Shown: positions 1,758 through 27,411 of the stretch, piece after piece
Layout of the letters: each line of letters opens with the position of its first letter
How positions within the stretch are numbered: position 1 is the stretch's first letter
Source: a virus
Taxonomy: Duplodnaviria > Heunggongvirae > Uroviricota > Caudoviricetes
Direction: 5' to 3' (one strand)
IMG/VR virus record: IMGVR_UViG_3300033463_000077
Length of the DNA stretch: 64,000 nucleotides
Notes under the pieces: generated by a model
What the model saw: only the letters and a program-made list of their open reading frames with translations
Told to the model about the DNA's origin: nothing
Database searches by the model: none
Program-made: the position numbers and the translations under genes

Positions 1758-2183
1758 TCAGGCCTCCTGGAGAGCGGTGGCCTCCGCCTCGGTAGTTTCC
1801 ATAGCCTTGGCCTTAAGGGCCTCTGCTGCGGCTTTCTTCCGAGCACGGTACCGACGGTTGGCCTCGGCTTTCCGAGCTTTCCGAGCTGCCGCCTTCTCCG
1901 CGGCTTCCTTGGCGGCCTTCCGCGCCTTGTCCAACTGACGGCGGCAGGTGGCCTTGATGGCATTCGGCATTTCGACCTTACCCTTGGAGTTGCGGCGGAA
2001 GGTGATGTCCTTAAAGGTCTCACCGTCTTCGGTGGTGACAATGGCTCGGACTCCCGCCTCGAGGTCCTTGTCGGTCAGGTTGTCCCGGACCTTGCGGAGC
2101 TCGTTCCACATGGCGGATTCGGACTTAACGGAGATGGTGGTCTCTTCGGTGGAGCGGGTGAGGTTGATGGTGAGTGCCTTCAT
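1758..2183 (-). CDS. paralog family A: putative DNA-binding protein with Lys/Ala/Arg-rich basic C-terminal tail
   Basis: ORF; shares SEANMW...VTTEDG..FKDI..NSKGK.EMPNAVKETCRRQ plus KARKAAKE..RKARKAEANRRYRARKK tail with 5 paralogs; own hairpin terminator. Confidence 0.6.
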   Translation of the reverse strand: MKALTINLTRSTEETTISVKSESAMWNELRKVRDNLTDKDLEAGVRAIVTTEDGETFKDITFRRNSKGKVEMPNAIKATCRRQLDKARKAAKEAAEKAAARKARKAEANRRYRARKKAAAEALKAKAMETTEAEATALQEA

Positions 2184-2209
2184 GGTGGCTTCCTTTCTGT
2201 TTGGTTGTT

Positions 2210-2250
2210 GTTGATATTATAATATAACACCGAAAATCAAAAAGTAAACC
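2210..2250 (-). promoter_or_regulatory. conserved early promoter motif copy
   Basis: motif match. Confidence 0.6.
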
Positions 2251-2258
2251 GAAATGGA

Positions 2259-2654
2259 TCAGTCTTCCGGAAGTTCAAAGTAGCGGACCTTACCGTCAGA
2301 GAAGGGCTCCCAAATGATATGATTCCGATCAATGTAGTTCTCGAAATAGCGGGCATATTTTTCGGGGTAGACCAACCGAATGATTTTGGAAGCGGGGATC
2401 TGTTCGTCAGTGGCAAGGCAATTATAGGGCTCATACATATTATCCAAGTCATCATCCAAAGCCCCTTCGATCATCTCTTTGGTCAACTCGGGAAGTTCCA
2501 CCTGAGACTGATACACATATTTCCGATGAGCATTTTCAAAGTTTCGAATGGCCGAGCCGGGACCTTCCGCAAGAATGATGTGATGAACCGGAGTTTTGGT
2601 GGGGTCATCAATGGCATAAGAAGTGACTCGAAAAACTTTTTCTGTTTCGCGCAT
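2259..2654 (-). CDS. hypothetical protein, paralog family B (EGALDDDLDNMYEPY motif)
   Basis: ORF; paralog at 6743..7135; RBS; promoter 2676-2714. Confidence 0.55.
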   Translation of the reverse strand: MRETEKVFRVTSYAIDDPTKTPVHHIILAEGPGSAIRNFENAHRKYVYQSQVELPELTKEMIEGALDDDLDNMYEPYNCLATDEQIPASKIIRLVYPEKYARYFENYIDRNHIIWEPFSDGKVRYFELPED

Positions 2655-2675
2655 AGTTCAGTCCTTTCAATTGGT

Positions 2676-2714
2676 TATTATTTGAATATAACAAGATTGT
2701 CCGAAAAGTAAACC
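2676..2714 (-). promoter_or_regulatory. conserved early promoter motif copy
   Basis: motif match. Confidence 0.6.
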
Positions 2715-2716
2715 GA

Positions 2717-2884
2717 TCAGTCCACACGGATGATATCATTCAGTTTGACAGTCAGAGGCTTCCAAGCTTCTTTGATCTTCGGCCACATCTTACGAGCTTC
2801 GGCTTTGTTTGCGGCGAGAACCTCAAGAATTCTGGTGCGAGGAGAATTGTCAGCGACAAAAGCGATGCGATAGAGATGAAGCAT
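2717..2884 (-). CDS. small protein (55 aa), paralog family C
   Basis: hand-found ORF MLHLYRIAFVADNSPR... with RBS AAAGGA; paralog of 4073..4231; promoter 2904-2944. Confidence 0.45.
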   Translation of the reverse strand: MLHLYRIAFVADNSPRTRILEVLAANKAEARKMWPKIKEAWKPLTVKLNDIIRVD

Positions 2885-2903
2885 TTAAGAGATCCTTTCC
2901 TTT

Positions 2904-2944
2904 TGTTGATATTATAATATAACAAGATTGTCCGAAAAGTAAAC
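2904..2944 (-). promoter_or_regulatory. conserved early promoter motif copy
   Basis: motif match. Confidence 0.6.
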
Positions 2945-2950
2945 CGAAAA

Positions 2951-2990
2951 ACTAAAAAGGTTCGGACCTTTTCTGATCCGAACCTAAGCC
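2951..2990 (-). terminator. rho-independent terminator downstream of family A gene
   Basis: GGUUCGGAUC-AGAAAA-GGUCCGAACC + UUUUUAG. Confidence 0.55.
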
Positions 2991-3006
2991 TTTCCAGGAA
3001 GGTTTA

Positions 3007-3435
3007 TTAAGCCTTCATGGGATCCGCGGCGATTTCCACAGCCTCATTGGTGACCGCATTCAAAGCTTCTTTCTCCGCCTTTTTCCGAGCCCGATACCGA
3101 CGGTTGGCTTCCGCCTTCCGGGCCTTCCGAGCGGCTTCCTTTTCCGCTTTCTCTTTCGCGGCCTTCCGGGCTTTTTCGACCTGGCGGCGGCAGGTCTCCT
3201 TGACCGCATTCGGCATTTCGATCTTTCCCTTGGAATTCCGCTTGAAGGTGATGTCCTTGAACAGGGTGCCGTCCTCGGTGGTGACGATAGCCTTCGGGGC
3301 GTCCTCAGCGGACAGATCGGCATCGGTCAGCTGATCCCGGACAGAGCGGAGGATGTTCCACATATTGGCCTCGGACTTGGCTTCGACAGTGGTGGTGTTG
3401 CCGCTGACGGTGGTGGTGATGGTGAGCTTTTTCAT
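3007..3435 (-). CDS. paralog family A basic-tail protein
   Basis: track ORF trimmed to MKKLTI start; KA/R-rich tail; own terminator 2951-2990. Confidence 0.6.
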   Translation of the reverse strand: MKKLTITTTVSGNTTTVEAKSEANMWNILRSVRDQLTDADLSAEDAPKAIVTTEDGTLFKDITFKRNSKGKIEMPNAVKETCRRQVEKARKAAKEKAEKEAARKARKAEANRRYRARKKAEKEALNAVTNEAVEIAADPMKA

Positions 3436-3457
3436 GGTGTGTTCCTTTCGTTTTGTT

Positions 3458-3500
3458 ATTGTTGATATTAGAATATAACAGAAAATCTTGGATTGTAAAC
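3458..3500 (-). promoter_or_regulatory. conserved early promoter motif copy
   Basis: motif match. Confidence 0.6.
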
Positions 3501-3508
3501 CGATTTGT

Positions 3509-3805
3509 TCAATTGAGAGCAATGTTCGGTTCTTTAATCTCTTTGATCAGAAAATCCTGGACCATATCATCCGCCAGATACATCACATTTTCCTTCGCCG
3601 TGGCAGGATAGGAAACACTGACTCCGGCCTGATCTTCGTAAAAGGTCGAATCTTTGATCTTTTCAGAGAGAGCTTTTCCAAGCCGCCTTGCCATCATCTT
3701 TGCTTCGTCGAAGGAAGAAAAGAGGCCGATGAGGTCTTCCTTGTGGGTGAAGGAAGAATGATCGATAGTATCATAGGAAATGAGGCGGGAGAAGATGGTG
3801 AACAT
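3509..3805 (-). CDS. hypothetical protein (98 aa)
   Basis: ORF; promoter 3833-3880. Confidence 0.5.
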   Translation of the reverse strand: MFTIFSRLISYDTIDHSSFTHKEDLIGLFSSFDEAKMMARRLGKALSEKIKDSTFYEDQAGVSVSYPATAKENVMYLADDMVQDFLIKEIKEPNIALN

Positions 3806-3832
3806 TGGGAACCTCCTTAGTAAAGTGATGAG

Positions 3833-3880
3833 TTGTTGATATTATAATATAATATAACAGCTGGCTAAAACATGTAAACC
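3833..3880 (-). promoter_or_regulatory. conserved early promoter motif copy (variant)
   Basis: motif match. Confidence 0.55.
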
Positions 3881-3885
3881 AAAGT

Positions 3886-3993
3886 TCAAAACAAAGTCGT
3901 CAAAAGCACTAGACCTGCAACTGCTGCCCCGTAAATAATTGCTCCAAGACCGAGGAAGATTCCAAACATCGCAGGCATAAAAAACTCTTTCAT
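3886..3993 (-). CDS. small hydrophobic peptide (~35 aa)
   Basis: hand-found ORF MMKEFFMPAMFGIFLGLGAIIYGAAVAG..., RBS AAGGAG, promoter 4025-4067. Confidence 0.3.
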   Translation of the reverse strand: MKEFFMPAMFGIFLGLGAIIYGAAVAGLVLLTTLF

Positions 3994-4024
3994 CATTGTG
4001 CTCCTTTGTTAGGATTGTTTGTTG

Positions 4025-4067
4025 TTATTGATATTTCAATATAACAGCAAGATCTGAAAAGTAAACC
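4025..4067 (-). promoter_or_regulatory. conserved early promoter motif copy
   Basis: motif match. Confidence 0.6.
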
Positions 4068-4072
4068 GAAAA

Positions 4073-4231
4073 TCAATCTTTCTTGATGATGTCCAACAGA
4101 GTGAGACGGCCTTCCGTTCTTTTGAAGGAGGTCCACTGTTTTCTGGCGGCGGCTTTATTCTGAGCGAGGAAATCACAGTAGAAAGAACGATCCGAATTTG
4201 CGCGGCGGAAGACAAAGCGGTAGGTGTGCAT
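4073..4231 (-). CDS. small protein (52 aa), paralog family C
   Basis: hand-found ORF MHTYRFVFRRANSDRSFY...; RBS GAAAGGAGAA; promoter 4251-4292. Confidence 0.45.
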   Translation of the reverse strand: MHTYRFVFRRANSDRSFYCDFLAQNKAAARKQWTSFKRTEGRLTLLDIIKKD

Positions 4232-4250
4232 TGATGTGTTCTCCTTTCGT

Positions 4251-4292
4251 TTGTTGATATTAAAATATAACAGGAGGATCCGAAAAGTAAAC
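4251..4292 (-). promoter_or_regulatory. conserved early promoter motif copy
   Basis: motif match. Confidence 0.6.
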
Positions 4293-4294
4293 CA

Positions 4295-4591
4295 TTATTC
4301 CTCGTAGCAGTCCGGGAAAATCAAGAATTTGCTTCGTTCATAACCGGGGAACATAAAGTACCCATTGGGATAGTAAGCAAATTTGCACATTTTCTGAAAT
4401 TCAATACCTCTATTGTCCACCTCCTTGTTATCCTTCATGAGGTGAGATGTGATAGTAAAGGTGCATTTCCGATCTCCGAAGTGGCGGCGGACAAAACGCT
4501 TAGCAGCCTTGACCAAAGGCATGAATTCACGATCTTCAAGGGATGCTGCCGGGTCAGCTGAAAAGTGTGCTTTGAAGAGAATGTAATCCAT
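4295..4591 (-). CDS. hypothetical protein (98 aa)
   Basis: track ORF trimmed to MDYILFK; promoter 4608-4649. Confidence 0.5.
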   Translation of the reverse strand: MDYILFKAHFSADPAASLEDREFMPLVKAAKRFVRRHFGDRKCTFTITSHLMKDNKEVDNRGIEFQKMCKFAYYPNGYFMFPGYERSKFLIFPDCYEE

Positions 4592-4607
4592 ATTAGAACC
4601 TTTCAAT

Positions 4608-4649
4608 TGTTGATATTAGAATATAACACCTGGAGTCAAAAAGTAAACC
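4608..4649 (-). promoter_or_regulatory. conserved early promoter motif copy
   Basis: motif match. Confidence 0.6.
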
Positions 4650-4655
4650 AAGATT

Positions 4656-4810
4656 TCAGCATTCTTCAATCCGAAGGATCATAACATTCGGACCGTTGAT
4701 CTTGCTTTCGGAATTGAAAACCTCGAGAGTGGAAGTTCCTTTGACCGTGTAGCTCATATGAAGGTTTTTGCTTTCATCAATGGCGGTGACGTAGAAAAGC
4801 TTCTTTTTCA
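4656..4810 (-). CDS. small protein (51 aa)
   Basis: hand-found ORF MKKKLFYVTAIDESK..., RBS GGAGGAACAAAGA. Confidence 0.4.
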
Positions 4811-4825
4811 TTCTTTGTTCCTCCT

Positions 4826-4970
4826 ATCAGTCTTCAGCCTTTTTCCAAGACTTATCTTTGCGGTTATAGTCCCTCTTGGACTTAAAAGCTTTAGTGGCGG
4901 GTTTCAGCTGTCCCCAAGTGCGACGGGTGGAGAGGGCGATCTCGTTGAGGCTTATGGTCATCTTTTTCAT
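4826..4970 (-). CDS. small basic protein (47 aa), paralog family D
   Basis: hand-found ORF MKKMTISLNEIALSTRRTWG...; paralog of 9879..10022; promoter 4988-5030. Confidence 0.45.
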
Positions 4971-4987
4971 TTCGGATTCCTTTCTTG

Positions 4988-5030
4988 TTGTTATATTAGA
5001 ATATAACAGAATATCAAAGAAAGTAAACCG
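4988..5030 (-). promoter_or_regulatory. conserved early promoter motif copy
   Basis: motif match. Confidence 0.6.
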
Positions 5031-5035
5031 ATCAA

Positions 5036-5323
5036 TCAGTGAACAGAAAGAAAATGTTCAGCACTCACTGCATTGATGTATTTGTCCTTGGAAGAGTAAA
5101 GAAGGAAAATTCGTTCACCTTTTTCAAAACCGGGAAGGGTCACTCTATCCAAAGGCGGAAAGTTCCAAACATGGACCTTCTTTGTTTTACAGTTGTGGAT
5201 AGAAAGATAAAAGCCGTGTTCAAAACCTCCGGCTTCCGCCATCGCTGCCCACATCGAATTGGGAATAGAGATGCGGTTCCTGGATCTGATCGTTACGATC
5301 TCACTTATAAGAATGTCTTCCAT
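5036..5323 (-). CDS. hypothetical protein (95 aa)
   Basis: track ORF trimmed to MEDIL start after RBS GAAGGAGA; promoter 5341-5380. Confidence 0.5.
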   Translation of the reverse strand: MEDILISEIVTIRSRNRISIPNSMWAAMAEAGGFEHGFYLSIHNCKTKKVHVWNFPPLDRVTLPGFEKGERIFLLYSSKDKYINAVSAEHFLSVH

Positions 5324-5340
5324 AATCTGTTCTCCTTCGT

Positions 5341-5380
5341 TTATATTTGAATATAACAAGATTCAAAGAAAAGTAAACCC
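5341..5380 (-). promoter_or_regulatory. conserved early promoter motif copy
   Basis: motif match. Confidence 0.6.
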
Positions 5381-5389
5381 AGGTTTTTT

Positions 5390-5430
5390 GATTCCAAATG
5401 GGAGTTGAAAAACCTGGGAGAGAGTTAGTA
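5390..5430 (-). terminator. hairpin terminator-like element downstream of phosphatase gene
   Basis: CAGGUUUUU...AAAAACCUG 9-bp stem. Confidence 0.35.
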
Positions 5431-5466
5431 ACAAGGAATGAGGCTTAGCTGAAGAGGAGCTGCTTT

Positions 5467-6021
5467 CTAGATCTTCGTTATATGATCCACACGTTCGCCG
5501 TCTTCATTGTATTCAATGTCATTCACTTCTATGCCTCTGAATGGAGCTCCGAACATTTCAAGTTTCAAAATTCTCATCACCTCAGGATTAGGCATGATAT
5601 GAGAGTTGTTCATTCTAAAAGCTTCATTGTCAATGCGGTTCGTTTTCAGAAACTTATTGAAGTATTCATTGAGCAGAGATCCAACAGCACCGCTGCGGCT
5701 AACTCCTGCATCACAATGAACATAGAATTCCATCTTCCCATCGTCCTTTACAGTCTTCAGGAATTCCATGATCTTCTGAGCATGTTCCTTATTGAAGTGG
5801 ATGACATTCTGTTCTTTGTCCTTTTCAGTTACGTCATCAAAACAGAGTTTGCAGACGTTCGAACGATTGGGCAAAGGACTGAGCTTCGGTTCTCCATTCA
5901 TACTCCAACCATAGTCGATCTCGGATGAATAAATGGAGATGAAGTAGTTCTTCTTCGCAAATTCTTTGTTCACTTTGAGCATTCCTTTGATCTCTGCTCT
6001 GCTGCAGACGTATATCTTCAT
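5467..6021 (-). CDS. Cys-based phosphatase of the PTP/dual-specificity family (protein or polynucleotide phosphatase)
   Basis: contains exact PTP signature VHCDAGVSRSG (HCxAGxxRSG); start set at MKIYV after RBS. Confidence 0.6.
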   Translation of the reverse strand: MKIYVCSRAEIKGMLKVNKEFAKKNYFISIYSSEIDYGWSMNGEPKLSPLPNRSNVCKLCFDDVTEKDKEQNVIHFNKEHAQKIMEFLKTVKDDGKMEFYVHCDAGVSRSGAVGSLLNEYFNKFLKTNRIDNEAFRMNNSHIMPNPEVMRILKLEMFGAPFRGIEVNDIEYNEDGERVDHITKI

Positions 6022-6037
6022 TTTCTTTTCCTTTTCC

Positions 6038-6376
6038 TTAACAAGTTTTTGCCATGAGGGCAATCAGTTTTTCCTCCTGGAACGAAGGACAGTGCATCAG
6101 CTGACGAGCATATTTGCCCATCTTTTTGAAAACCCAGGGAAGCTGTTTTTCCGTAAGGTGTCCTTTGAACAAAACCCGCTTGGCACAGCTGGTGAGGAAT
6201 GGAGCATCCGATCCAGTGAAGCCAATCCCATTGTGATGATTGGTCGTCGCGGTCTCCTGTTCAGAAGCAGTCTGAGCCTCAAAGATCTTGAGCAGTGCTC
6301 TCTCAGTCCAACGAGGATCGGTGGTGATTTTGGTGCGAAGGAAATCGAGCTGCTGTTCTTTCGTGGGCTTATTCAT
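6038..6376 (-). CDS. hypothetical protein (112 aa)
   Basis: track ORF trimmed to MNKPTKEQ after RBS GGAGGA; promoter 6394-6434. Confidence 0.5.
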   Translation of the reverse strand: MNKPTKEQQLDFLRTKITTDPRWTERALLKIFEAQTASEQETATTNHHNGIGFTGSDAPFLTSCAKRVLFKGHLTEKQLPWVFKKMGKYARQLMHCPSFQEEKLIALMAKTC

Positions 6377-6393
6377 ATTGTGTGTCCTCCAAT

Positions 6394-6434
6394 TGTTGAT
6401 ATTATAATATAACACCGATCTGGGAAAAGTAAAC
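6394..6434 (-). promoter_or_regulatory. conserved early promoter motif copy
   Basis: motif match. Confidence 0.6.
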
Positions 6435-6437
6435 AAA

Positions 6438-6680
6438 TCAAATTCCGATCAAATGCATTTCCTTCACTTCGGCATCAATCACTTCACCACACTCCTCCAC
6501 GGACCAAATAGCATAATCGTAGTTTTTGGCGGACTTGAACTTATTCTGTAAAATGTTGTAAAGAATAGAACAACCGCGGACACGTGCATCATTCGGATCA
6601 TTAGCCTTCACGGTCAGCATGCCATCTTTGATGATGGAGTGAAGAAGATTGACGGTGAAGTGAACTTCGTAGGTTTTCAT
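6438..6680 (-). CDS. hypothetical protein (80 aa)
   Basis: ORF, RBS AAAGGAG, promoter 6696-6735. Confidence 0.5.
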   Translation of the reverse strand: MKTYEVHFTVNLLHSIIKDGMLTVKANDPNDARVRGCSILYNILQNKFKSAKNYDYAIWSVEECGEVIDAEVKEMHLIGI

Positions 6681-6695
6681 AATTGGCTCCTTTGA

Positions 6696-6735
6696 TTGAT
6701 ATTATAATTTAACACCAATCAAAGGATTGTAAACC
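6696..6735 (-). promoter_or_regulatory. conserved early promoter motif copy
   Basis: motif match. Confidence 0.6.
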
Positions 6736-6742
6736 GAAATTC

Positions 6743-7135
6743 TCAGTCTTCGGGAATTTCAAAATATCTCCAAGAGCCATTGGACTGCTGTTCGGCAATG
6801 ATGTTGTTCCGCTGACAATACCCAGGAATATACGAACCATAGTACTTATCGGGGTAGAACTTTTTGATGATCTCAGAGGCCGGAATCTCCTCATCCGTGG
6901 CCAGGCAGGTGTAAGGTTCATACATATTGTCAAGGTCATCATCGAGAGCTCCTTCGATCATCTTCTGAGAGAGCTCAACGAGTTCCTTAACAGAACTGTA
7001 GGTATGGCCCTGATGGCCGTGGAGGAAATTGTCGATGGCTTCAGTCTTCGAATTGGCTGAAATGATCAGGTTGGTCTGTTTGACGGGAGAAGCGGAATCA
7101 CAAGGAACGGCAGTGAATTGGAAAAGCTTGTACAT
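6743..7135 (-). CDS. hypothetical protein, paralog family B
   Basis: ORF; shares KMIEGALDDDLDNMYEPYTCLATDEEIPAS with 2259..2654; promoter 7157-7196. Confidence 0.55.
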   Translation of the reverse strand: MYKLFQFTAVPCDSASPVKQTNLIISANSKTEAIDNFLHGHQGHTYSSVKELVELSQKMIEGALDDDLDNMYEPYTCLATDEEIPASEIIKKFYPDKYYGSYIPGYCQRNNIIAEQQSNGSWRYFEIPED

Positions 7136-7156
7136 GAAGCAGTCCTTTCTGTTAAG

Positions 7157-7196
7157 GTTGTATTAAAATATAACAAAGATTCCGAAAAAGTAAACC
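7157..7196 (-). promoter_or_regulatory. conserved early promoter motif copy
   Basis: motif match. Confidence 0.6.
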
Positions 7197-7208
7197 AAGT
7201 TTACCAAA

Positions 7209-7472
7209 TTATTTGCTCAGAAAAACTCTGCAATAATCAGTGTCAGTCATCATGTCCATAAGATCATCAAAGTCATCTGACCATTCGGTCATAATGGCAG
7301 CGATCAGAGAGTCCTTTGTCCCAGTCAGAGACCAAGAAGAATAATGATCACCGCCATCATTAAATGATGCTGTGATGTTATATTTGTATTTCATCTTTGC
7401 TTCAAAAGTCTTCACTTCGGCTTCATTCGCCCACATTGAATCAATGGTGACTGTAATAGGCTTCTCTTTCAT
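7209..7472 (-). CDS. hypothetical acidic protein (87 aa)
   Basis: ORF, RBS AAAGGGA; last gene of 4-gene operon from promoter 8310-8350. Confidence 0.5.
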   Translation of the reverse strand: MKEKPITVTIDSMWANEAEVKTFEAKMKYKYNITASFNDGGDHYSSWSLTGTKDSLIAAIMTEWSDDFDDLMDMMTDTDYCRVFLSK

Positions 7473-7499
7473 TTAAAAGTCCCTTTCTGTTAAACAAAC

Positions 7500-7775
7500 T
7501 TAATCATTCTTTTTCCAAAGATTGGAAGCTTTCTCCATCTGTTTGCAAGTATCTTCATATTCTTTGTACCAACTTTGAATCTTCTCTTGGAGTTCTGTTA
7601 GATCATTGTAATAGTATTCAACTTCATTAGCACCGGAGGAATGACCAAGTTCCCATGCTGTTTCAAAAATCATTTTCCTAATAGGAAGCGGAAGACTTCC
7701 ATAAGTGATCTCATTGAAAAGTTTTTCTTTTTCATCATGTTCTCTTTCAAGACGAGCTTTAAGAATAGGATTCAT
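7500..7775 (-). CDS. hypothetical protein (91 aa)
   Basis: track ORF trimmed to MNPIL after RBS GAAAGGAATG. Confidence 0.45.
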   Translation of the reverse strand: MNPILKARLEREHDEKEKLFNEITYGSLPLPIRKMIFETAWELGHSSGANEVEYYYNDLTELQEKIQSWYKEYEDTCKQMEKASNLWKKND

Positions 7776-8079
7776 ATTCATTCCTTTCAACTAATTTGAC
7801 TTGTTTAGTAAATATTTGATGAAGAAAACTCCGAAATTCATTCTGGGATTCTTTGGACCATTCAAATTTTTCTGTAATGATTGATTTTGCTGCTTTAAAT
7901 AAATCCATACGATTAGGTTTTATAAAAGATGATTTAGCAATCTCATAAAATGCAACTCCGTCACAAGTAGTATCATTGGTAAATTTATGAAGGAAAATAC
8001 GAAAAGTTTGATTATGATTATAATACTTAAGAGTAAGTATTATTTGATCATTATTTGTTTGAATAATAAAAATTTTCAT
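7759..8079 (-). CDS. hypothetical protein (106 aa), AT-rich
   Basis: ORF in operon, overlaps neighbours by few nt. Confidence 0.45.
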   Translation of the reverse strand: MKIFIIQTNNDQIILTLKYYNHNQTFRIFLHKFTNDTTCDGVAFYEIAKSSFIKPNRMDLFKAAKSIITEKFEWSKESQNEFRSFLHQIFTKQVKLVERNEYESYS

Positions 8080-8291
8080 TATCTCACCTTTGCGACAAGG
8101 AATTCTCTGTCACCGAACCTGAGGCCGGATGTAAGCATTTCGATTTTTTCATTGTGAAGAGCTGCAAACTTTTCAGCCAACTTAATTGCATATAGTCTTC
8201 CTTCTTGGAAGGTTGAAAATGTTTTATCAGTGATTCTTCGTCCAAAAACCGGGCCTTTGCGATTAATTGAGTAGATAGTGTACTTATCCAT
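8079..8291 (-). CDS. hypothetical protein (70 aa)
   Basis: ORF, RBS GAAAGGAACAC, promoter 8310-8350. Confidence 0.45.
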   Translation of the reverse strand: MDKYTIYSINRKGPVFGRRITDKTFSTFQEGRLYAIKLAEKFAALHNEKIEMLTSGLRFGDREFLVAKVR

Positions 8292-8309
8292 GGTGTGTTC
8301 CTTTCAATT

Positions 8310-8350
8310 GTTGATATTAAAATATAACATAATGTCTGAAAAAGTAAACC
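8310..8350 (-). promoter_or_regulatory. conserved early promoter motif copy
   Basis: motif match. Confidence 0.6.
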
Positions 8351-8518
8351 TCAGAACATAAAAAGTTCTATAACTGCAAGAATTTGAAAATGTTGATTAA
8401 AGCGAAGGTAAAGAGCTTCTTCTGCTTCTTTTTCAGATGCGGTGGAAAGAGGAATAATGATTTCGCTTGAACCATTGTCAGGATGGTGGAATGAAACTCT
8501 ATAGAGATGAACTGTCAT
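8351..8518 (-). CDS. small protein (~55 aa)
   Basis: hand-found ORF MTVHLYRVSFHHPDNGSSEIIIPL...; RBS GAAAGGAAAAG; promoter 8535-8576. Confidence 0.4.
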   Translation of the reverse strand: MTVHLYRVSFHHPDNGSSEIIIPLSTASEKEAEEALYLRFNQHFQILAVIELFMF

Positions 8519-8534
8519 TTTCTTTTCCTTTCAA

Positions 8535-8576
8535 TTGTTGATATTAAAATATAACATATTGTCTGAAAAAGTAAAC
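8535..8576 (-). promoter_or_regulatory. conserved early promoter motif copy
   Basis: motif match. Confidence 0.6.
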
Positions 8577-8928
8577 ACAAAAAGAAGAGGATCAAGGGTA
8601 TCGAACCCCATGTAGAACTTGTTAGTTCCCGCCTGGCTCCGTGGACCTTGGAGGTGAGTCTGCTCGTATCATTCTCTTTCCATCCTTCATCCAGTCTTCA
8701 TATACGAGATGAAAACTTTCAAAAAGGTGTCCTTGAAGGGATCCTCATAAAAAGATCGGAGAGAACCTTCTCGCATATGGTCGAATCATTCCGCTCTCAT
8801 AAAATGGCGGACGTCACGGTCTCTAAACTCTGGCTTGAATAGAATCTCCAAAACCAACGGAGACATGCGATATTTTCTCTTAATCACCTTCCAGTGGCCA
8901 TTCCACCTACTCAGTGAAATCCGATCCA

Positions 8929-8964
8929 TATTTTAATATAACTTCTTGTCTGAAAAAGTAAACC
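8929..8964 (-). promoter_or_regulatory. conserved early promoter motif copy
   Basis: motif match. Confidence 0.55.
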
Positions 8965-9660: not shown

Positions 9661-9672
9661 TTTATTCCTCCT

Positions 9673-9876
9673 TCATTCGGTGATAAAAGAACCGACGGAA
9701 TTTCCGTTTTGGTCAATGAGAATGACACTCTCCCAGGAGACATCAGGATTGTCGGAGATCTGATCCGCAAGTTTTCTCAGAATCCTTGCCACCTCGATAT
9801 TTTTTGAATAGTTCGTATAGATCCCTCTTACATCCGCGAAAGCGGATCCTTCGGTTCTGATTTGAATTTTAACCAT
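9673..9876 (-). CDS. hypothetical protein (67 aa)
   Basis: track ORF trimmed to MVKIQ after RBS. Confidence 0.45.
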   Translation of the reverse strand: MVKIQIRTEGSAFADVRGIYTNYSKNIEVARILRKLADQISDNPDVSWESVILIDQNGNSVGSFITE

Positions 9877-9878
9877 GT

Positions 9879-10022
9879 TCAGTCTTCCTCTCTCCGCCAA
9901 GAATGGTCCTTGCGGTTATAAGTCTTTTTGGTTTTGTGAATGCGGCTATAAGGACGGACGTCACCCCAAGTGCGGCGGGTAGAGAGTGCAATTTCGTCCA
10001 TTTTGATCGTCATCTTTTTCAT
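9879..10022 (-). CDS. small basic protein (47 aa), paralog family D
   Basis: track ORF trimmed to MKKMTIKMDEIALSTRRTWG; promoter 10043-10086. Confidence 0.45.
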   Translation of the reverse strand: MKKMTIKMDEIALSTRRTWGDVRPYSRIHKTKKTYNRKDHSWRREED

Positions 10023-10042
10023 TTCCGACTCCTTTGAATTTG

Positions 10043-10086
10043 TTGTTTTCATATTATAATATAACACCTGGAGTCAAAAAGTAAAC
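10043..10086 (-). promoter_or_regulatory. conserved early promoter motif copy
   Basis: motif match. Confidence 0.6.
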
Positions 10087-10595: not shown

Positions 10596-10640
10596 ATAGA
10601 CGGAAGGACCGATCTTTTTGACCGATCCTTCCAAAGCGCC
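10596..10640 (-). terminator. rho-independent terminator downstream of family A gene
   Basis: GGAAGGAUCGGUC-AAAAA-GAUCGGUCCUUCC + U-rich. Confidence 0.55.
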
Positions 10641-10721: not shown

Positions 10722-11120
10722 CTAAGGCTGGGCAACGGTTTCCCCAATGGTTTCCACCGCTCCCTCAGCGGCCTCCTTCTGAGCCTTCTTGCGGAGGCGG
10801 TACCGACGGTTGGCTTCAGCCTTCCGGGCCTTCCGAGCGGCTTCTTTCTCCGCCTTCTCTTTTGCGGCCTTCCGAGCCTTATCCATTTGACGGCGGCAGG
10901 TCTCCTTGACCAGGTTCACCATCTGAATCTTGTCCTTCACCACCTTGAAGACGATGTCCTTGAACAGGGTGCCGTCCTCAGTGGTGACCGTGGCATGCGG
11001 GGTGTCCTCGGCGACCTTTCCTTCGAGGCTGTCTCGGATCTCCCGGAGGTGGGTCCACATATTGGCCTCGGACCGGGCTTCGATGGTGCTGTCGGCGAAC
11101 TGAATGGTGAGCTTCTTCAT
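10722..11120 (-). CDS. paralog family A basic-tail protein
   Basis: ORF; near-identical N-terminus to 23010..23444; KA/R tail; terminator 10596-10640. Confidence 0.6.
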   Translation of the reverse strand: MKKLTIQFADSTIEARSEANMWTHLREIRDSLEGKVAEDTPHATVTTEDGTLFKDIVFKVVKDKIQMVNLVKETCRRQMDKARKAAKEKAEKEAARKARKAEANRRYRLRKKAQKEAAEGAVETIGETVAQP

Positions 11121-11145: not shown

Positions 11146-11189
11146 GGTTTGTATATTTTAATATAACAGTGAACTTCAAAAAGTAAACT
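11146..11189 (-). promoter_or_regulatory. conserved early promoter motif copy
   Basis: motif match. Confidence 0.6.
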
Positions 11190-11519: not shown

Positions 11520-11909
11520 TCAGCAGTTCCGAAGATCCACTGTCACCTTTGGATTGGAGAAGGAAGAAGGATCCACACACTCAACAATCTTTTCCTCTCC
11601 TGTTTCCGGATTCACAAAGGTGATGGATCCACCTGTGCATTCCACATCCACAAGAAACCGGTCGGCATTGCGGAACTCTATTTTCCCCTTACGGTTAAGC
11701 TCAAAGGAGATTCTTTTGGGCATCCGATTTCCCAGCGGAGTACTTTCATCGGCGGAGACCTCAAGGATGGTCCCGTTGAGAAGATTCGGATCGGTTGTAT
11801 CACGGATCTCCCTGATCTTGGTCCAAGCCGCGGAAACGGACTTAACAGTAATATTCTCGTCAGAGAGACCGATATTGTCAGAGATTTTGGAAGTGAGCAG
11901 AGTGATCAT
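11520..11909 (-). CDS. hypothetical protein (129 aa), distant relative of family A N-domain without basic tail
   Basis: ORF; shares AAWTKIREIRD pattern; promoter 11929-11969. Confidence 0.5.
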   Translation of the reverse strand: MITLLTSKISDNIGLSDENITVKSVSAAWTKIREIRDTTDPNLLNGTILEVSADESTPLGNRMPKRISFELNRKGKIEFRNADRFLVDVECTGGSITFVNPETGEEKIVECVDPSSFSNPKVTVDLRNC

Positions 11910-11928: not shown

Positions 11929-11969
11929 GTTGATATTATAATATAACATCAAGTCTGAGAAAGTAAACC
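11929..11969 (-). promoter_or_regulatory. conserved early promoter motif copy
   Basis: motif match. Confidence 0.6.
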
Positions 11970-24276: not shown

Positions 24277-24299
24277 TTTCAAATCTCCTTGTTGGTTTG

Positions 24300-24340
24300 T
24301 TGTATATTTGAATATAACACCTGAATTCAAAAAGTAAACT
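24300..24340 (-). promoter_or_regulatory. conserved early promoter motif copy
   Basis: motif match. Confidence 0.6.
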
Positions 24341-24380
24341 AAGAAGGCCATTGAGAATTTATTCTCAATGGCCTTCAGAA
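24340..24380 (-). terminator. 16-bp palindromic hairpin downstream of 24390 gene
   Basis: GAAGGCCATTGAGAAT/ATTCTCAATGGCCTTC. Confidence 0.45.
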
Positions 24381-24389
24381 AGGGTGAAA

Positions 24390-24752
24390 TTAAAAGCTCG
24401 GATCCAAGTAGTCTTCCACCTTGTGATTGCAGATGTGGAAGGTGTCAAAACCCATGCAGGTGCGGTAAGGAGTCTTTCCAGGCTTGGCACGGCCTTTCTC
24501 ATCAAAGTAACCAGCGACGTAGGAGCCATACCGAGGGCTGTTCTTTCTGGTCACCAGAACCGCCAGTTCACCGTTTGCATGTTTGAACCAAGTGAGATCA
24601 TCTGCCACTTCAGTGATCTGCTGGCCGTAGCGATCAGAGCCAACAGAACGGCTGGTCCAAAATCCAACACAGGGAAAAAACCGATCCCTGAGGGTGACTC
24701 CTTTGACAATGTAACGGCCTTCTGCGTCCTGGGAGATGATGCCTTTCTTCAT
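24390..24752 (-). CDS. hypothetical protein, paralog family F (inverted duplicate of 25397..25732)
   Basis: track ORF trimmed to MKKGIISQDAEG; identical RBS context GAAAGGAACACCGCTATGAAGAA as paralog; ends ..DPSF. Confidence 0.55.
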   Translation of the reverse strand: MKKGIISQDAEGRYIVKGVTLRDRFFPCVGFWTSRSVGSDRYGQQITEVADDLTWFKHANGELAVLVTRKNSPRYGSYVAGYFDEKGRAKPGKTPYRTCMGFDTFHICNHKVEDYLDPSF

Positions 24753-24777
24753 AGCGGTGTTCCTTTCAATTTGTTTC

Positions 24778-24819
24778 GGTTGATATTGTAATATAACATG
24801 CAATCTTACAGAGTAAACC
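24778..24819 (-). promoter_or_regulatory. conserved early promoter motif copy
   Basis: motif match. Confidence 0.55.
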
Positions 24820-25096
24820 AATCCACCAATGAAGAGTCCCGTTTTCCTTCCTCAGGGAGGAGCTGAAGGAACATCTCGATCTTCTTCATTTCGCCGCCTT
24901 TCAGACGTTCGTAAGAGACCCAATATCCCCAATCGGAGTCATGATTTACGATATTCCTCCTATTCTCAGAAGGAAGGATCGCATGGAACATAATACTCTT
25001 ACACTGATCGATGGTACCGAAAAAGATCGGATGAGAAACATTGTCAGTTTCTTCTTTAACGAGAATTACGGCTTTTTGTTCAGCGGTGTCAGCCAT
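24806..25096 (-). CDS. hypothetical protein (96 aa)
   Basis: track ORF trimmed to MADTAEQK; promoter 25122-25161. Confidence 0.5.
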   Translation of the reverse strand: MADTAEQKAVILVKEETDNVSHPIFFGTIDQCKSIMFHAILPSENRRNIVNHDSDWGYWVSYERLKGGEMKKIEMFLQLLPEEGKRDSSLVDWFTL

Positions 25097-25121
25097 GATG
25101 AAAATCTCCTTTTCTGTTGTT

Positions 25122-25161
25122 GTTGATATTTGAATATAACATCGGTTCATCAAAAGTAAAC
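25122..25161 (-). promoter_or_regulatory. conserved early promoter motif copy
   Basis: motif match. Confidence 0.6.
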
Positions 25162-25186
25162 CAAAAAACAAATTTTTTCTAAAAAG

Positions 25187-25228
25187 ATCAAAATTTGTTT
25201 ACTTTCTTTGACTTTATGTTATATTCAA
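25187..25228 (+). promoter_or_regulatory. conserved promoter motif copy (orphan, plus orientation in switch region)
   Basis: GTTTACTTTCTTTGACTTTATGTTATATTCAAATAT. Confidence 0.55.
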
Positions 25229-25300
25229 ATATCAACCAATCGATCAAGGAGGAACTTCGATCGCTGCCGACCCAGAGGGGCGGGTAAAAGTGTCTTAAGA
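25229..25300 (+). ncRNA. orphan promoter-driven short element (repeat family R1 copy)
   Basis: promoter 25187-25228 then CAATCGATCAAGGAGGAACTTCGATCGCTGCCGACCCAGAGGGGCGGGTAAAAGTGTCTTAAGACTTGA, no start codon. Confidence 0.35.
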
Positions 25301-25329
25301 CTTGAATAAGAATTTTTTCACAAAGGGCG

Positions 25330-25370
25330 GTTTACTTTTTGACTCTTGGTGTTATATTATAATATCAACC
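25330..25370 (+). promoter_or_regulatory. conserved early promoter motif copy
   Basis: GGTTTACTTTTTGACTCTTGGTGTTATATTATAATAT. Confidence 0.6.
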
Positions 25371-25396
25371 AACAACTAAACGAAAGGAACACCGCT

Positions 25397-25732
25397 ATGA
25401 AGAAGCTGCCCTTTGAACTGAAAGTCGGAATGGATTTCACCCTCAGCGCAGGATCTGACTGCTATACTTGGCGGATCATTGAAGTTGACAAGAACGGCAA
25501 AGGCTTTACCGCCGCCCAGTACTCCCCGAGGAATAAGGCCGTTTGGCCGGCTCAGGATTGGGTCTTTGAAGATGATAACGGGCGGCCGTTGCTCAACTCC
25601 AATATCATGCATGCCAAATACGGATACGGCCGCTGGGTGATGGACAAACACTCGTTCTACATCGGCGAGGTCAAAGAACGAATCTATCCGGGCTTCGGTA
25701 AGCGGTACTATTACCAAGATCCCTCCTTCTAA
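25397..25732 (+). CDS. hypothetical protein, paralog family F (plus strand in switch region)
   Basis: track ORF trimmed to MKKLPFELK; promoter 25330-25370; ends YQDPSF. Confidence 0.55.
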   Translation: MKKLPFELKVGMDFTLSAGSDCYTWRIIEVDKNGKGFTAAQYSPRNKAVWPAQDWVFEDDNGRPLLNSNIMHAKYGYGRWVMDKHSFYIGEVKERIYPGFGKRYYYQDPSF

Positions 25733-25768
25733 ACCGATCCAAAAACTGGGAAGGAACCTCCTTCCTAG

Positions 25769-25808
25769 TTTACTTTTTGACATTTTCTGTTATATTTTAA
25801 TATCAACC
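25769..25808 (+). promoter_or_regulatory. conserved promoter motif copy (orphan)
   Basis: motif match. Confidence 0.55.
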
Positions 25809-25880
25809 AGAGAATCAAGGAGAACTTAATTCCTGTTTACCCAAAGGGGTGGGGAAAAGTGTCTTAAGACTTGATGTGAA
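25809..25880 (+). ncRNA. orphan promoter-driven short element (repeat family R1 copy)
   Basis: promoter 25769-25808 then AGAGAATCAAGGAGAACTTAATTCCTGTTTACCCAAAGGGGTGGGGAAAAGTGTCTTAAGACTTGA. Confidence 0.35.
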
Positions 25881-25969
25881 AGTAACATCAAAAGAGAAAA
25901 AGTAAACTTTGATCGTTCTTCAATCAAAAGAAAATTTTGCATAAATTTTTGTCTTTTCTTTGATTTTTG

Positions 25970-26008
25970 GTTTACTTTTCACTTTTGTATGTTATATTTT
26001 AATATGCC
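25970..26008 (+). promoter_or_regulatory. conserved promoter motif copy (orphan)
   Basis: motif match. Confidence 0.5.
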
Positions 26009-26125
26009 TTGCATCTTCATTTTTTCTTCGTCCGAAATGAAAGATCAAAGAAAAAATCAAAGATCAAAAAAGAAAAAATTAGAATAATAAAGGTTTGGAT
26101 CAGGATCCAAACCTTATTTTATTCA
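26009..26125 (+). ncRNA. orphan promoter-driven short AT-rich transcript ending at bidirectional terminator
   Basis: promoter 25970-26008; (A)n-rich 80 nt; hairpin AAGGUUUGGAUC/GAUCCAAACCUU + U-run. Confidence 0.3.
26090..26125. terminator. bidirectional terminator at strand-switch boundary
   Basis: AAGGTTTGGATC-AG-GATCCAAACCTT + ATTTTATT. Confidence 0.55.
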
Positions 26126-26146
26126 ATGAAAGATTATTGAAAAATC

Positions 26147-26353
26147 TCAATATGGGTGGACTTCATCAAACCATTCGTCCATCAACATTTTATATGCAGC
26201 GGGAAATCTGATTTTGTATTCCTGAACAGGAGTGTTCTTTCCGATATAAAAGAAACTTTCTTTATCTCCTTCAGTATGCATCCAATATCCTGACTGAAGT
26301 TGAATGAATTTGGTAGCAAGGTAATCCTGAAATTTTAATTCAAATTTATCCAT
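26147..26353 (-). CDS. hypothetical protein (68 aa), paralog family H
   Basis: ORF, RBS TAAGGAGAC; promoter 26379-26418. Confidence 0.5.
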   Translation of the reverse strand: MDKFELKFQDYLATKFIQLQSGYWMHTEGDKESFFYIGKNTPVQEYKIRFPAAYKMLMDEWFDEVHPY

Positions 26354-26378
26354 TTTGAAAAGTCTCCTTAACTGATTT

Positions 26379-26418
26379 TGTTATATTGAAATATAACACC
26401 TGAATTCAAAAAGTAAAC
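26379..26418 (-). promoter_or_regulatory. conserved early promoter motif copy
   Basis: motif match. Confidence 0.6.
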
Positions 26419-26420
26419 TT

Positions 26421-26696
26421 TCAATCCAACATTCTGTTTTCATATTCCTGAATATCTTTCAAAGAAATCCATTCAGGTTTTTCTGTAACATCAAAGGAGA
26501 ACCAAAGTTTTTTCATCAAACCGATATGAGCCTGAATGGTTCTTCCCCAAAGATATTTGACATTTCGATGTCCTGCACCAAAAAAGTATTCGCAATCAGA
26601 ACGAAGACGATCAAGAAGCTGATAACGAAACTTTACATCCTGTTTAAGAGGATCAAACTCAAATTCATCATTGAAATGATATGAACACATTTTCAT
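26421..26696 (-). CDS. hypothetical protein (91 aa)
   Basis: ORF, RBS AAGGAGAAATG; promoter 26716-26754. Confidence 0.5.
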   Translation of the reverse strand: MKMCSYHFNDEFEFDPLKQDVKFRYQLLDRLRSDCEYFFGAGHRNVKYLWGRTIQAHIGLMKKLWFSFDVTEKPEWISLKDIQEYENRMLD

Positions 26697-26715
26697 TTCT
26701 CCTTAATTTATTTTG

Positions 26716-26754
26716 TTGTTATTTGAATATAACATTGCGAAGTTGAAAATAAAC
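26716..26754 (-). promoter_or_regulatory. promoter motif copy (variant)
   Basis: partial motif match. Confidence 0.45.
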
Positions 26755-26761
26755 TTACATC

Positions 26762-26822
26762 TTCAATTTTGAAGTCAAAGTCTAGAATTTGAAGTCAAAG
26801 TCTAGAATTTGAAGTCCGCCTA
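26762..26822. repeat. 21-bp tandem direct repeat (GAAGTCAAAGTCTAGAATTT x2 plus partial third)
   Basis: seen directly in sequence. Confidence 0.7.
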
Positions 26823-26857
26823 GCCTATTTTGAATTTGATTCAGAAACGACTATATT

Positions 26858-26976
26858 AAAAAGGCTTCCGCTGTTTTGATGATTGAAATGATTTAAGAAT
26901 GAAAGGAGGTGAACTCTTAAATCTATCAGGCCAACAACAACCCTATTCAATCATCAAAACAGCGGAAGCCAACTCA
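26858..26976. repeat. 25-bp perfect inverted repeat (GGCTTCCGCTGTTTTGATGATTGAA ... TTCAATCATCAAAACAGCGGAAGCC) with ~65-bp spacer
   Basis: seen directly; spacer carries SD-like AAAGGAGGTG without start codon. Confidence 0.7.
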
Positions 26977-27018
26977 TAGAAAGGAACGGAGTTGAGCATC
27001 TCCGTTTAATGATTCTTT

Positions 27019-27411
27019 TTACTCACCGGCGGCGACAGCCAGCTCCTGCGTATCCGCCAGAACATCCGCCATCTCAGCAACGGTGGCACCGGACGGGGCG
27101 ACCTCACCCTTCACCTTCTTGGCAGTCTTCGCCTTTACGGTCTTCTTCTCGCCCTTAGTCGGACGAACTCGATTGGTCTCCTTGACTGCATTCGGCATCT
27201 CGATCTTCCCCTTGGAATTGCGACGGAAAGTAATATCCTTAAACGGATTCCCGTCGGCATCAGTGACAACAGCACGAACACCGGCCTTCAGCTGTTCATC
27301 AGTGATTTCATCCCGAACCTTCCGCAGTGCATTCCACATTGCGCACTCGGACTTCACATCAGTGACAGTGGTTTCGGTACCCTTGGTAAGAGTGATCTTG
27401 AGCATCTTCAT
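27019..27411 (-). CDS. paralog family A (divergent; Lys/Val/Ala tail)
   Basis: ORF; SECAMWNALRKVRDE..FKDITFRRNSKGKIEMPNAVKETNR conserved; promoter 27448-27486. Confidence 0.55.
   Translation of the reverse strand: MKMLKITLTKGTETTVTDVKSECAMWNALRKVRDEITDEQLKAGVRAVVTDADGNPFKDITFRRNSKGKIEMPNAVKETNRVRPTKGEKKTVKAKTAKKVKGEVAPSGATVAEMADVLADTQELAVAAGE

Follow-up and report, generated by a model that had tools for sequence, protein, structure and literature searches.

We show here that a 64,000-nucleotide stretch of the Caudoviricetes virus record IMGVR_UViG_3300033463_000077 (the whole stretch is called the window, hereafter) encodes a novel, phage-restricted and previously undescribed family of small proteins, with exactly six members in the window, and that this family is under purifying selection. 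Members share a conserved N-terminal domain (N-domain) of about 85 amino acids, followed by one of several classes of C-terminal tail, the most common of which is a basic helix with an invariant RRYR core. Our preferred interpretation, which we hold with somewhat less than even confidence, is that these are abundant early nucleic-acid-binding proteins that play an architectural or regulatory role within a host-takeover gene array.

All six open reading frames (ORFs) lie on the minus strand, exactly where an earlier reading of the letters alone (the sequence-only reading, hereafter) had placed them. Four of them belong to the RRYR-basic tail class, i.e., m1 (1758-2183; 141 amino acids; E=3e-68 to the family hidden Markov model (HMM); GC content 0.62 and GC content at third codon positions (GC3) 0.77), m2 (3007-3435; 142 amino acids, starting at the ATG at 3435 and not at a TTG further upstream), m3 (10722-11120; 132 amino acids) and m4 (23010-23444; 144 amino acids); these were assigned based on ORF, alignment, HMM and GC content and, for m2, also on an AlphaFold2 model. 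The fifth, m5 (27019-27411; 130 amino acids; ORF, alignment, HMM and tail class), represents the ‘DVLA’ class, and the sixth, m6 (11520-11909; 129 amino acids; GC3 0.55), is a distant member with a Cys-containing, beta-rich tail. The proposal that a conserved N-domain and basic tails define a real paralog family held up: m1-m5 align along their N-terminal 85 residues with 52-68% identity to m1, and m6, although only 24% identical, matches an independent profile built from the other five only at E=3.5e-8 and thus belongs to the family. A six-frame HMM scan of the window for a seventh member found nothing else below E=0.8. The first (5’) 89 nucleotides of m3 and m4 are 96% identical (DNA repeat D16), which indicates local gene conversion within the RRYR class.

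The family is sizeable and, based on the databases searched, unannotated. A profile search with the N-domain recovered 161 proteins among 5.8 billion (232 with a broadened profile) and an exhaustive HMMER scan of 1.84 billion cluster representatives recovered 55 clusters. At 90% clustering the family amounts to about 230 sequences, and at 50% identity to 55 clusters. These relatives all originate from metagenome assemblies, are described at most as ‘hypothetical protein’ and carry no Pfam domain. Record names would hint at gut-type metagenomes, and one of them, with the prefix XIEF21, may point to a ruminant gut set. One match, P0121 (2155 amino acids, E=3e-35 over 12 stretches), was rejected as spurious, being an Ig-repeat, eukaryote-type protein in which weak repeat matches were summed. 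Pfam, PHROGs, PADLOC and NCBIfam gave no match above threshold for the family, and the sub-threshold matches to DUF6033, KfrA_N, PRTRC_E and TolA involve a Lys/Ala/Glu-rich helix and are most likely compositional. No relative was found by tblastn among deposited phages (50,697 phage records) or by a pattern-plus-tblastn scan of 185,579 prokaryotic species genomes, and the same scan of IMG/VR gave pattern matches, none of which was a true relative. In contrast, 36 related loci contain 70 family ORFs, and the long contigs of other lineages hold the same set of members, i.e., several of the RRYR type, one of the Cys type and one of the DVLA type.

The N-domain itself appears to be novel. In the AlphaFold2 model of m2, based on an alignment of 120 sequences (mean predicted local distance difference test score (pLDDT) 85.7), the N-domain (pLDDT around 90) consists of a beta-hairpin, a helix, a short helix, a second beta-hairpin and a further short strand, that is, a beta-beta-alpha-alpha-beta-beta arrangement, followed by an uninterrupted predicted helix spanning residues 83-140; modeled alone, the N-domain has a pLDDT of 81.7. 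Foldseek searches of the full-length model against the PDB returned no significant neighbor (best E 0.6), and a fold search of the N-domain against BFVD returned, at a best E of 0.02, only uncharacterized small phage proteins. Hence, neither Pfam, PHROGs and the PDB nor the viral structure library searched contains a detectable homolog of this alpha+beta domain of about 85 amino acids, and the fold check that the sequence-only reading had suggested, with a non-DNA-related fold as the outcome that would speak against it, yielded no confident homology to anything. Several basic residues of the N-domain are invariant or nearly invariant, namely R33 and K60, as well as R30, K69, K71, K79 and R83.

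The tails are more diverse than the domain that carries them. Among 120 homologs, 71 have the RRYR basic helix (as in m1-m4), 23 the DVLA tail (as in m5), 8 the Cys-containing beta-rich tail (as in m6) and 15 some other tail, and 3 are almost tail-less; more distant members show yet other tails, often acidic. The Lys/Ala/Arg-rich tail that had been ascribed to the family is a property of m1-m4, whereas m5 has a short Lys-rich linker followed by an acidic amphipathic helix of the type ‘xEMxDVLAxxxxLA’ (APSGATVAEMADVLADTQELA in m5), and m6, previously described as consisting of the N-domain only, in fact carries a tail of its own. The RRYR core reads (R/K)K-A-(K/R)-K-x-E-A-(N/D)-RRYR-x-(R/K)-KK-A, with RRYR invariant in all 54 distinct tails, and the tail is predicted to form a single helix (block-mean pLDDT 82-90 for residues 91-130) with basic residues all round it (helical moment 0.03 vs. 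a shuffle mean of 0.15). Counted directly, the net charge of the basic stretch of about 38 residues in m2 is about +11, and RRYR tails are usually acidic over their last 15 residues.

Such a tail is not of the histone H1 kind. H1 and the bacterial H1-like proteins (Chlamydia Hc1, AlgP, the C-terminal domain of mycobacterial HupB, and HBHA, the latter a Lys-rich nucleoid-associated protein (PMC10665949)) do resemble the family in having a Lys/Ala-rich basic C-terminal extension on a small protein. However, the winged-helix domain of linker histones is absent (no Pfam match at E<=1 and no winged-helix neighbors), and a repeat finder found none of the PAKKA/KPAA-type tandem repeats of Hc1, AlgP and HupB within the family genes. 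Further, H1-type tails conserve composition rather than sequence and, in H1/H5, form a disordered Lys/Ala/Pro C-terminal domain, whereas the family tail is predicted to be one helix, contains only 2.5% Pro and no repeats, and is conserved position by position across near-saturated synonymous divergence. The description of the tails as ‘histone-H1-like’ in the sequence-only reading is therefore not supported.

Some tails also move between proteins. Within the loci fetched, the RRYR module is exclusive to the family; a search of the database with the tail only (a 60-amino-acid query) returned nothing at E<=0.01 and is uninformative about the occurrence of this module in other proteins globally. 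A different conserved early protein (ANFTKFFRNGKTFSAYCRMRYG...), encoded by the gene at 2-322 on the minus strand, which is cut by the start of the window and has the highest GC3 in it (0.88), has orthologs in related loci L005, L009, L011, L016 and L025. This protein and distant family members (P0141; L016/L017) have in common a tail of the form ...YIHSGAGLDNYFxDRDAGF / YI(H/M)SGAGLxxYYEDxxAGY; that is, an SGAGL tail occurs on unrelated early proteins, which shows that C-terminal tails are exchanged as modules between families of early genes.

An alternative explanation that these observations bring up is that the N-domain binds and blocks a host protein (e.g., a defense nuclease, a toxin, a nucleoid protein or RNA polymerase), with the tails acting as adaptors for localization, a second contact or mimicry and the paralogs covering several related targets. 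The N-domain is, indeed, the only part conserved across all tail classes, the non-basic classes fit such a scheme, and swapping of tails between unrelated early proteins, as for SGAGL, is what would be expected of docking peptides. In addition, the genes are part of an array of about 50 small genes, as in the early regions of T4 and in the host-takeover module of SPO1, which encodes Gp46, an inhibitor of HU (PMC8892312). On the other hand, no match to PADLOC, Pfam or PHROGs supports this explanation, and the small proteins known to inhibit nucleic-acid enzymes tend to be acidic mimics of DNA, in contrast to the approximately +11 charge over the helix of the dominant class here. Selection on the family is also purifying rather than arms-race-like (below). 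Taken together, we consider this explanation, the main rival, unlikely, albeit one to be taken seriously. Among small inhibitor folds, AcrIF9, AcrIIC3, T4 Dmd and CdiI scored too low for homology to be inferred; these proteins have no basic helical tails and are not multi-copy.

The selection signal is consistent across the gene. All pairwise ratios of non-synonymous to synonymous substitution rates (dN/dS) were below 1, i.e., 0.10-0.63 for the N-domain and 0.12-0.47 for the RRYR tails where dS was computable, and between paralogs 47-80% of the synonymous vs. 17-33% of the non-synonymous sites of the RRYR tail differ. Moreover, m5 shares 84% identity with its ortholog in another lineage vs. 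63% with its best paralog in the window, m6 shares 82% with its orthologs vs. 37%, and m3 shares 76% vs. 69%; hence, the paralog classes predate the split of the phage lineages. The diversifying selection that the number of diverged copies had suggested is thus not supported, in view of the dN/dS values, the recurrence of the same mix of classes elsewhere and orthologs that are closer than paralogs for m3, m5 and m6. Duplicated small genes abound throughout the early array, where further paralog pairs (seen as DNA repeats D18 and D19 and as similar translations) are 2259-2654 and 6743-7135, 2717-2884 and 4073-4231, 21738-21992 and 22054-22311, and 4912-4997 and 9964-10049.

Every copy forms an independent cassette of promoter, gene and terminator with an anomalous GC content, in support of the separate high-GC cassettes that had been proposed. 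All six members are preceded, 35-70 nucleotides upstream of the ATG, by GTTTAC-N17-TGnTATATT, that is, by the -35, 17-nucleotide spacer and extended -10 of a sigma-70-type promoter as read from the DNA. These promoters lie, on the minus strand, at 2221-2248 for m1 (-35 GTTTAC and extended -10 TGTTATATT), 3472-3499 for m2, 11160-11187 for m3, 23482-23511 for m4, 27457-27486 for m5 (a weaker match; for the latter two the upper bound is approximate) and 11940-11967 for m6. They are instances of an element of about 45 nucleotides with about 80 copies in the window, which consists of GTTTAC, a 17-nucleotide spacer with TTTTTGA, TGTTATATT and nnAATATCAAC and contains TGTTATATT..AATATCAACA (e.g., 1550-1577, 18294-18321 and 44791-44819); a generic sigma-70 scan of 1-14 kb likewise found 61 sites vs. 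23 expected. Leftward copies number 47 and are located across 1-27.8 kb, whereas the 33 rightward copies are mostly at 28-64 kb. In the leftward 28 kb, a separate copy and then a Shine-Dalgarno sequence of the GAAAGGA type precede nearly every small ORF. The -35 is T4-early-like and accompanied by an extended -10, but conservation exceeds what sigma-70 needs, extending to the spacer, a quasi-palindrome around -10/+1 and a shared mRNA leader, which suggests a common regulator or operator. Exceptional promoters as the cause of high expression of the family can be ruled out (ranks 6-68 of the 80 copies). The main point of divergence between leftward and rightward transcription is near 28.1-28.2 kb, and four rightward promoters are found inside the leftward array, at 25197, 25330, 25768 and 25970 (25197-26011).

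The 3’ ends of the cassettes are similarly distinctive. Strong hairpins followed by a U-run, with stems of 11-14 pairs, are found on the minus strand after the stop codons of m1 (1710-1741; -19.3 kcal/mol, z-score -4.3; a GAAA loop), m2 (2958-2985; -24.3 kcal/mol, z-score -4.5), m3 (10601-10633, about 90 nucleotides past the stop codon; -22.3 kcal/mol, z-score -4.0) and m4 (22957-22991; -23.4 kcal/mol, z-score -5.4; a GAAAA loop), and none of 200 shuffles folds as well as any of them (z-scores -4.0 to -5.4). Those after m1-m3 are also the three strongest terminator-like sites in 1-14 kb. Hence, four predicted intrinsic terminators are present as the sequence-only reading held, but they are not four near-identical ones: only m1, m3 and m4 have the GGATCGGTC core in common, and m2 has its own sequence, GGTTCGGATC-AGAAAA-GGTCCGAACC. 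The perfect palindrome GGATCGGTC...GACCGATCC occurs once, after m4, while the hairpins of m1 and m3 read GGATCGGTC...GATCGGTCC and keep the RNA fold through G.U pairs. For m5, a weak proximal hairpin is followed by a large structured element that probably takes over the role (below), and m6 lacks a separate hairpin in this genome. Most orthologs have a predicted intrinsic terminator: in most lineages a separate hairpin with a T-run comes after every member, with a sequence specific to the lineage, and in one lineage all 11 occurrences of a CCCTGGA-TGCAT-TCCAGGG hairpin are directly after family genes. These lineage-specific hairpins tied to family genes support the proposal that gene and terminator duplicate, or convert, as one module.

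The same arrangement weighs against the suggestion, also made from the letters alone, that the proteins are packaging chaperones, or, more generally, virion-internal or DNA-condensing proteins. Small basic proteins condense DNA in several viruses and the tail here is net positive. Nonetheless, all six genes are located in the leftward array of about 50 small genes, behind sigma-70-type, early-looking promoters that also precede, in identical form, about 45 other small genes and DNA/RNA-repair genes; no member has structural genes in its vicinity, and none matches a PHROG structural family. We consequently regard a packaging role as very improbable.

The genes m1-m5 have 54-62% GC and m6 48%, in a window of 36% (39% in 1-28 kb), in agreement with the anomaly previously noted. 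GC3 is 0.63-0.78 for m1-m5 vs. 0.3-0.6 for most neighboring small genes and 0.2-0.35 for the plus-strand core genes; since the excess is at third codon positions, an Ala/Arg/Gly-rich protein composition alone is not the explanation. Specifically, the family uses no AGA or AGG (50 in the core genes), ATA (7), CCA (13) or ACA (19) codons, uses CGN 59 times (32 in the core genes), and has an AAG:AAA ratio of 79:13 vs. 105:158 in the core genes. The window encodes tRNAs that include Arg-TCT, Ile-TAT, Lys-TTT, Pro-TGG and Ala-TGC, and the codons avoided by the family (AGA, ATA, AAA, CCA and GCA) are those that the phage’s own tRNAs decode, whereas the core genes use them. It has been described previously that early and late genes of phages differ in codon usage, in part in connection with the host tRNA pool (PMC5683454). 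Three other small genes with raised GC3 and no Pfam match, at 899-1252 (-; 0.77), 24390-24752 (-; 0.58) and 25397-25732 (+; 0.67), may belong to the same host-codon-adapted expression class.

Alternatively, it could be hypothesized that the cassettes are foreign ‘morons’ recently acquired from a higher-GC host or a mobile element, given their high GC content in a low-GC genome, their own promoters and terminators, and the presence of other isolated high-GC3 genes nearby (2-322 and 899-1252). However, the GC3 excess and the family itself are common to diverged phage lineages (RRYR class, n=38: mean GC3 of 0.77 vs. a locus background GC of 0.42), the promoters are the phage’s own consensus, and the searches of prokaryotic genomes and phage records described above found no relative. 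In addition, paralogs differ at 40-80% of synonymous sites (proportion of differing synonymous sites, pS, 0.4-0.8), yet all stay GC3-rich; that is, with synonymous sites near saturation, the bias must be maintained and is not the fading trace of a recent transfer. Recent foreign acquisition is accordingly most improbable in our estimation, and a host origin of the GC-rich cassettes is largely ruled out by the absence from prokaryotes, the GC3 excess across lineages and the synonymous divergence of the paralogs. Instead, translational selection, or conceivably a biased gene conversion between copies, would keep the bias in place.

The element that follows m5 deserves separate consideration. A conserved structured RNA of about 115 nucleotides that ends in a U-run, identified based on fold, covariation and synteny, is located directly downstream of m5 (26858-26976, minus strand), folds with -55.6 kcal/mol (z-score -9.2) and follows the DVLA-class gene in 8 of 8 loci. 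Its counterparts in related loci are at 10419-10532 of L001, 10426-10543 of L026, 1692-1805 of L027 and 621-737 of L032; across these five sequences only, 22 of 41 pairs show compensatory double changes and almost none is broken, and the G.U pairs favor the minus strand as the functional one. A 25-bp outer stem, ending in the U-run, encloses an internal motif, GAUUGAAUA-GG-UUGUUGUUGGCC-GA, that varies at only two positions among the five sequences, and a hairpin loop shows an invariant CCUCCUUUC, the anti-Shine-Dalgarno sequence of 16S rRNA 3’ ends. Rfam contained no match for this RNA. Shorter variants with the same UAGGGUUGUnGUUGGCCUGA and CCUCCUU motifs (outer stem with U-run, UAGGGUUGUGGUUGGCCUGA and a (C/U)CUCCUU loop) are found at other gene ends, both in the window (45973-46052 (+), just upstream of the DNA-ligase promoter) and in other lineages (L021 14-108 and 6485-6578; L022 9989-10083; L031 11868-11961). 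The m5 transcript probably has this downstream RNA as its 3’ end; the RNA may be only an elaborate terminator or, equally, an anti-Shine-Dalgarno mimic derived from the 3’ untranslated region. A short tandem repeat of gacttcaaattctagacttt (about 2.5 copies; 26760-26810 (-)) lies just downstream of it.

A covariation-supported RNA that is syntenic with one family member in 8 of 8 loci, and a conserved leader past the -10 that would be common to all early mRNAs, raise the possibility that the proteins are RNA-binding regulators, with the RRYR helix being an arginine-rich motif (ARM) that reads early mRNA leaders, rRNA, tRNA or the structured RNA of the DVLA gene and controls translation, mRNA stability or termination. 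Like the ARMs of lambda and P22 N and of HIV Rev and Tat, the helix is short, uniformly basic, rich in R, K, A and E and has a key, here invariant, aromatic residue; N proteins are also early regulators of phages, a role that the family would have in common with them. The hairpins of m1-m4 have GAAA(A)-type, boxB-like loops, and that of m4 (GGUCU-GAAAA-AGACC) resembles lambda boxB. Nevertheless, GAAA loops are common in ordinary terminators, and the hairpins after the family genes vary in stem and loop between lineages (TGCAT, ATCC, TCACC and other loops) while RRYR remains invariant, so a conserved cognate hairpin of the boxB kind is missing; the family shows no likeness to lambda N by BLASTP (E 0.4), and its motif is C-terminal to a folded domain, in contrast to the ARM binders. 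A boxB/ARM pair was thus rejected as the family-wide target. Further, m5, the member next to the structured RNA, lacks the RRYR helix. On balance, an RNA-binding role appears rather unlikely.

The preferred interpretation of early, abundant nucleic-acid-binding proteins draws on the basic helix, for which nucleic-acid binding is plausible, with DNA somewhat more likely than RNA as the target. The helix resembles the basic region of basic leucine zipper (bZIP) proteins such as GCN4 in being a continuous basic alpha-helix with an RRxRxRK core, and BLASTP aligned the RRYR core to the GCN4 basic region ALKRARNTEAARRSRARK with 11 of 18 identical positions (E=8e-4 for this single pairwise comparison). 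Skn-1 has no zipper and binds DNA through a basic helix at its C-terminus, which a globular domain supports. As to the gene context, the long array of small genes, each with its own promoter and Shine-Dalgarno sequence, is similar to the early regions of T4 and the host-takeover region of SPO1, and the T4-type GTTTAC -35 and the T4-type Rnl1 and Rnl2 genes nearby extend the likeness to T4; by analogy, early timing is suggested, even though T4-like and SPO1-like phages do not have the family (tblastn, deposited phages).

Under this interpretation, the host sigma-70-type RNA polymerase would fire each cassette from its own near-consensus promoter on infection, the GC3-rich codon set would suit the host tRNA pool and be translated efficiently before phage tRNAs accumulate, and the hairpin and U-run would end, and probably stabilize, each mRNA. 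The N-domain is the common core and the C-terminal module is exchangeable: the basic helix of about 35 residues with its acidic tip may bind nucleic acid in a defined, not merely electrostatic, manner, acting like a bZIP-type basic region that lacks a zipper and is held by a globular domain, while the DVLA, Cys and SGAGL tails may link this N-domain with different partners. Acting in stoichiometric amounts on nucleic acid of the host or the phage, the proteins would thereby be early factors with an architectural or regulatory role. Functionally, such a protein would be most like p6 of phi29, a small early phage protein that binds DNA without sequence specificity, forms large nucleoprotein complexes and regulates early promoters (PMC3100819). 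No Pfam, PHROG, PDB sequence or fold match relates the family to p6, and the proposed likeness is one of function. An acidic C-terminus is a further similarity of p6. The two differ in architecture: p6 is single-copy and binds via its N-terminal region, whereas the family has its basic element in a C-terminal helix, with RRYR as the invariant core, and 5-6 copies of the gene.

Several points weigh against the nucleic-acid-binding interpretation. We infer nucleic-acid binding, early timing and high abundance alike for a phage that is uncultured. About 40% of members lack a net-basic tail (non-RRYR tails have a mean net charge of +0.1), and hence a family-wide function cannot depend on the basic helix. 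The N-domain has no recognizable DNA- or RNA-binding fold and, being alpha+beta, differs from the helical bZIP proteins. Similarly, the bZIP signature N-x2-AA-x2-(C/S)-R is absent, with the family reading K-x2-A(N/D)-x2-Y-R instead; no leucine heptads follow KKA, where the sequence is Ala/Glu/Thr/Val-rich and variable, and Pfam bZIP models gave no match at E<=1. Last, the family promoters are only ordinary matches to the consensus (ranks 6 (m1), 19, 50, 55, 57 and 68 (m5) of 80), so that only codon usage and terminators argue for very high expression.

The window, which belongs to a large phage genome, encodes T4-type RNA ligases 1 and 2, a NAD-dependent DNA ligase, a Pol X-type polymerase and a phosphoesterase, as well as at least seven or eight tRNAs. 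Megablast against deposited phages gave no match to the window, and the DNA ligase is less than 29% identical to anything in the phage records. ARAGORN and Rfam disagree on a few of the tRNA genes: ARAGORN predicted a tRNA-Pro at 20764-20842 and, at 35597-35670 (+), a tRNA-like gene whose anticodon (caga) has four bases, neither of which Rfam confirmed, whereas the tRNA found by Rfam at 38525-38607 (+) was missed by ARAGORN. The early array also contains, in an island of 25% GC, a gene at 19616-20647 (-) for a 343-amino-acid protein that contains numerous CxxC motifs and ends in an endonuclease-like domain (DUF559/MTES_1575), which may be an insertion of a homing or very-short-patch-repair-type endonuclease.

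In conclusion, our results reveal a sizeable and wholly unannotated protein family that is seemingly encoded by some of the most expression-optimized genes of an uncultured lineage of large phages. The two ‘codon dialects’ of this genome, with the family avoiding the codons that the phage’s own tRNAs decode and the core genes using them, represent a clean natural example of temporal codon partitioning, and in uncultured phages it could be of use for predicting which genes are early and host-dependent. The list of phage early proteins that organize nucleic acids is short, and it would gain a new architecture if DNA or RNA is bound by the RRYR helix. The swapping of C-terminal modules between unrelated early proteins, in turn, suggests a tool-kit logic for host takeover. 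A more far-reaching version, which we consider a long shot, is that the RRYR helix is a sequence- or structure-specific reader, i.e., that the family represents a new class of nucleic-acid-binding regulator, built from a globular alpha+beta support domain and a C-terminal basic helix with no zipper, that acts with the roughly 80-copy promoter/leader element and/or the structured RNAs and switches off early expression or redirects host translation. If true, this uncultured lineage of large, putatively gut-associated phages would possess a coordinated protein-plus-RNA system for the takeover of its host.

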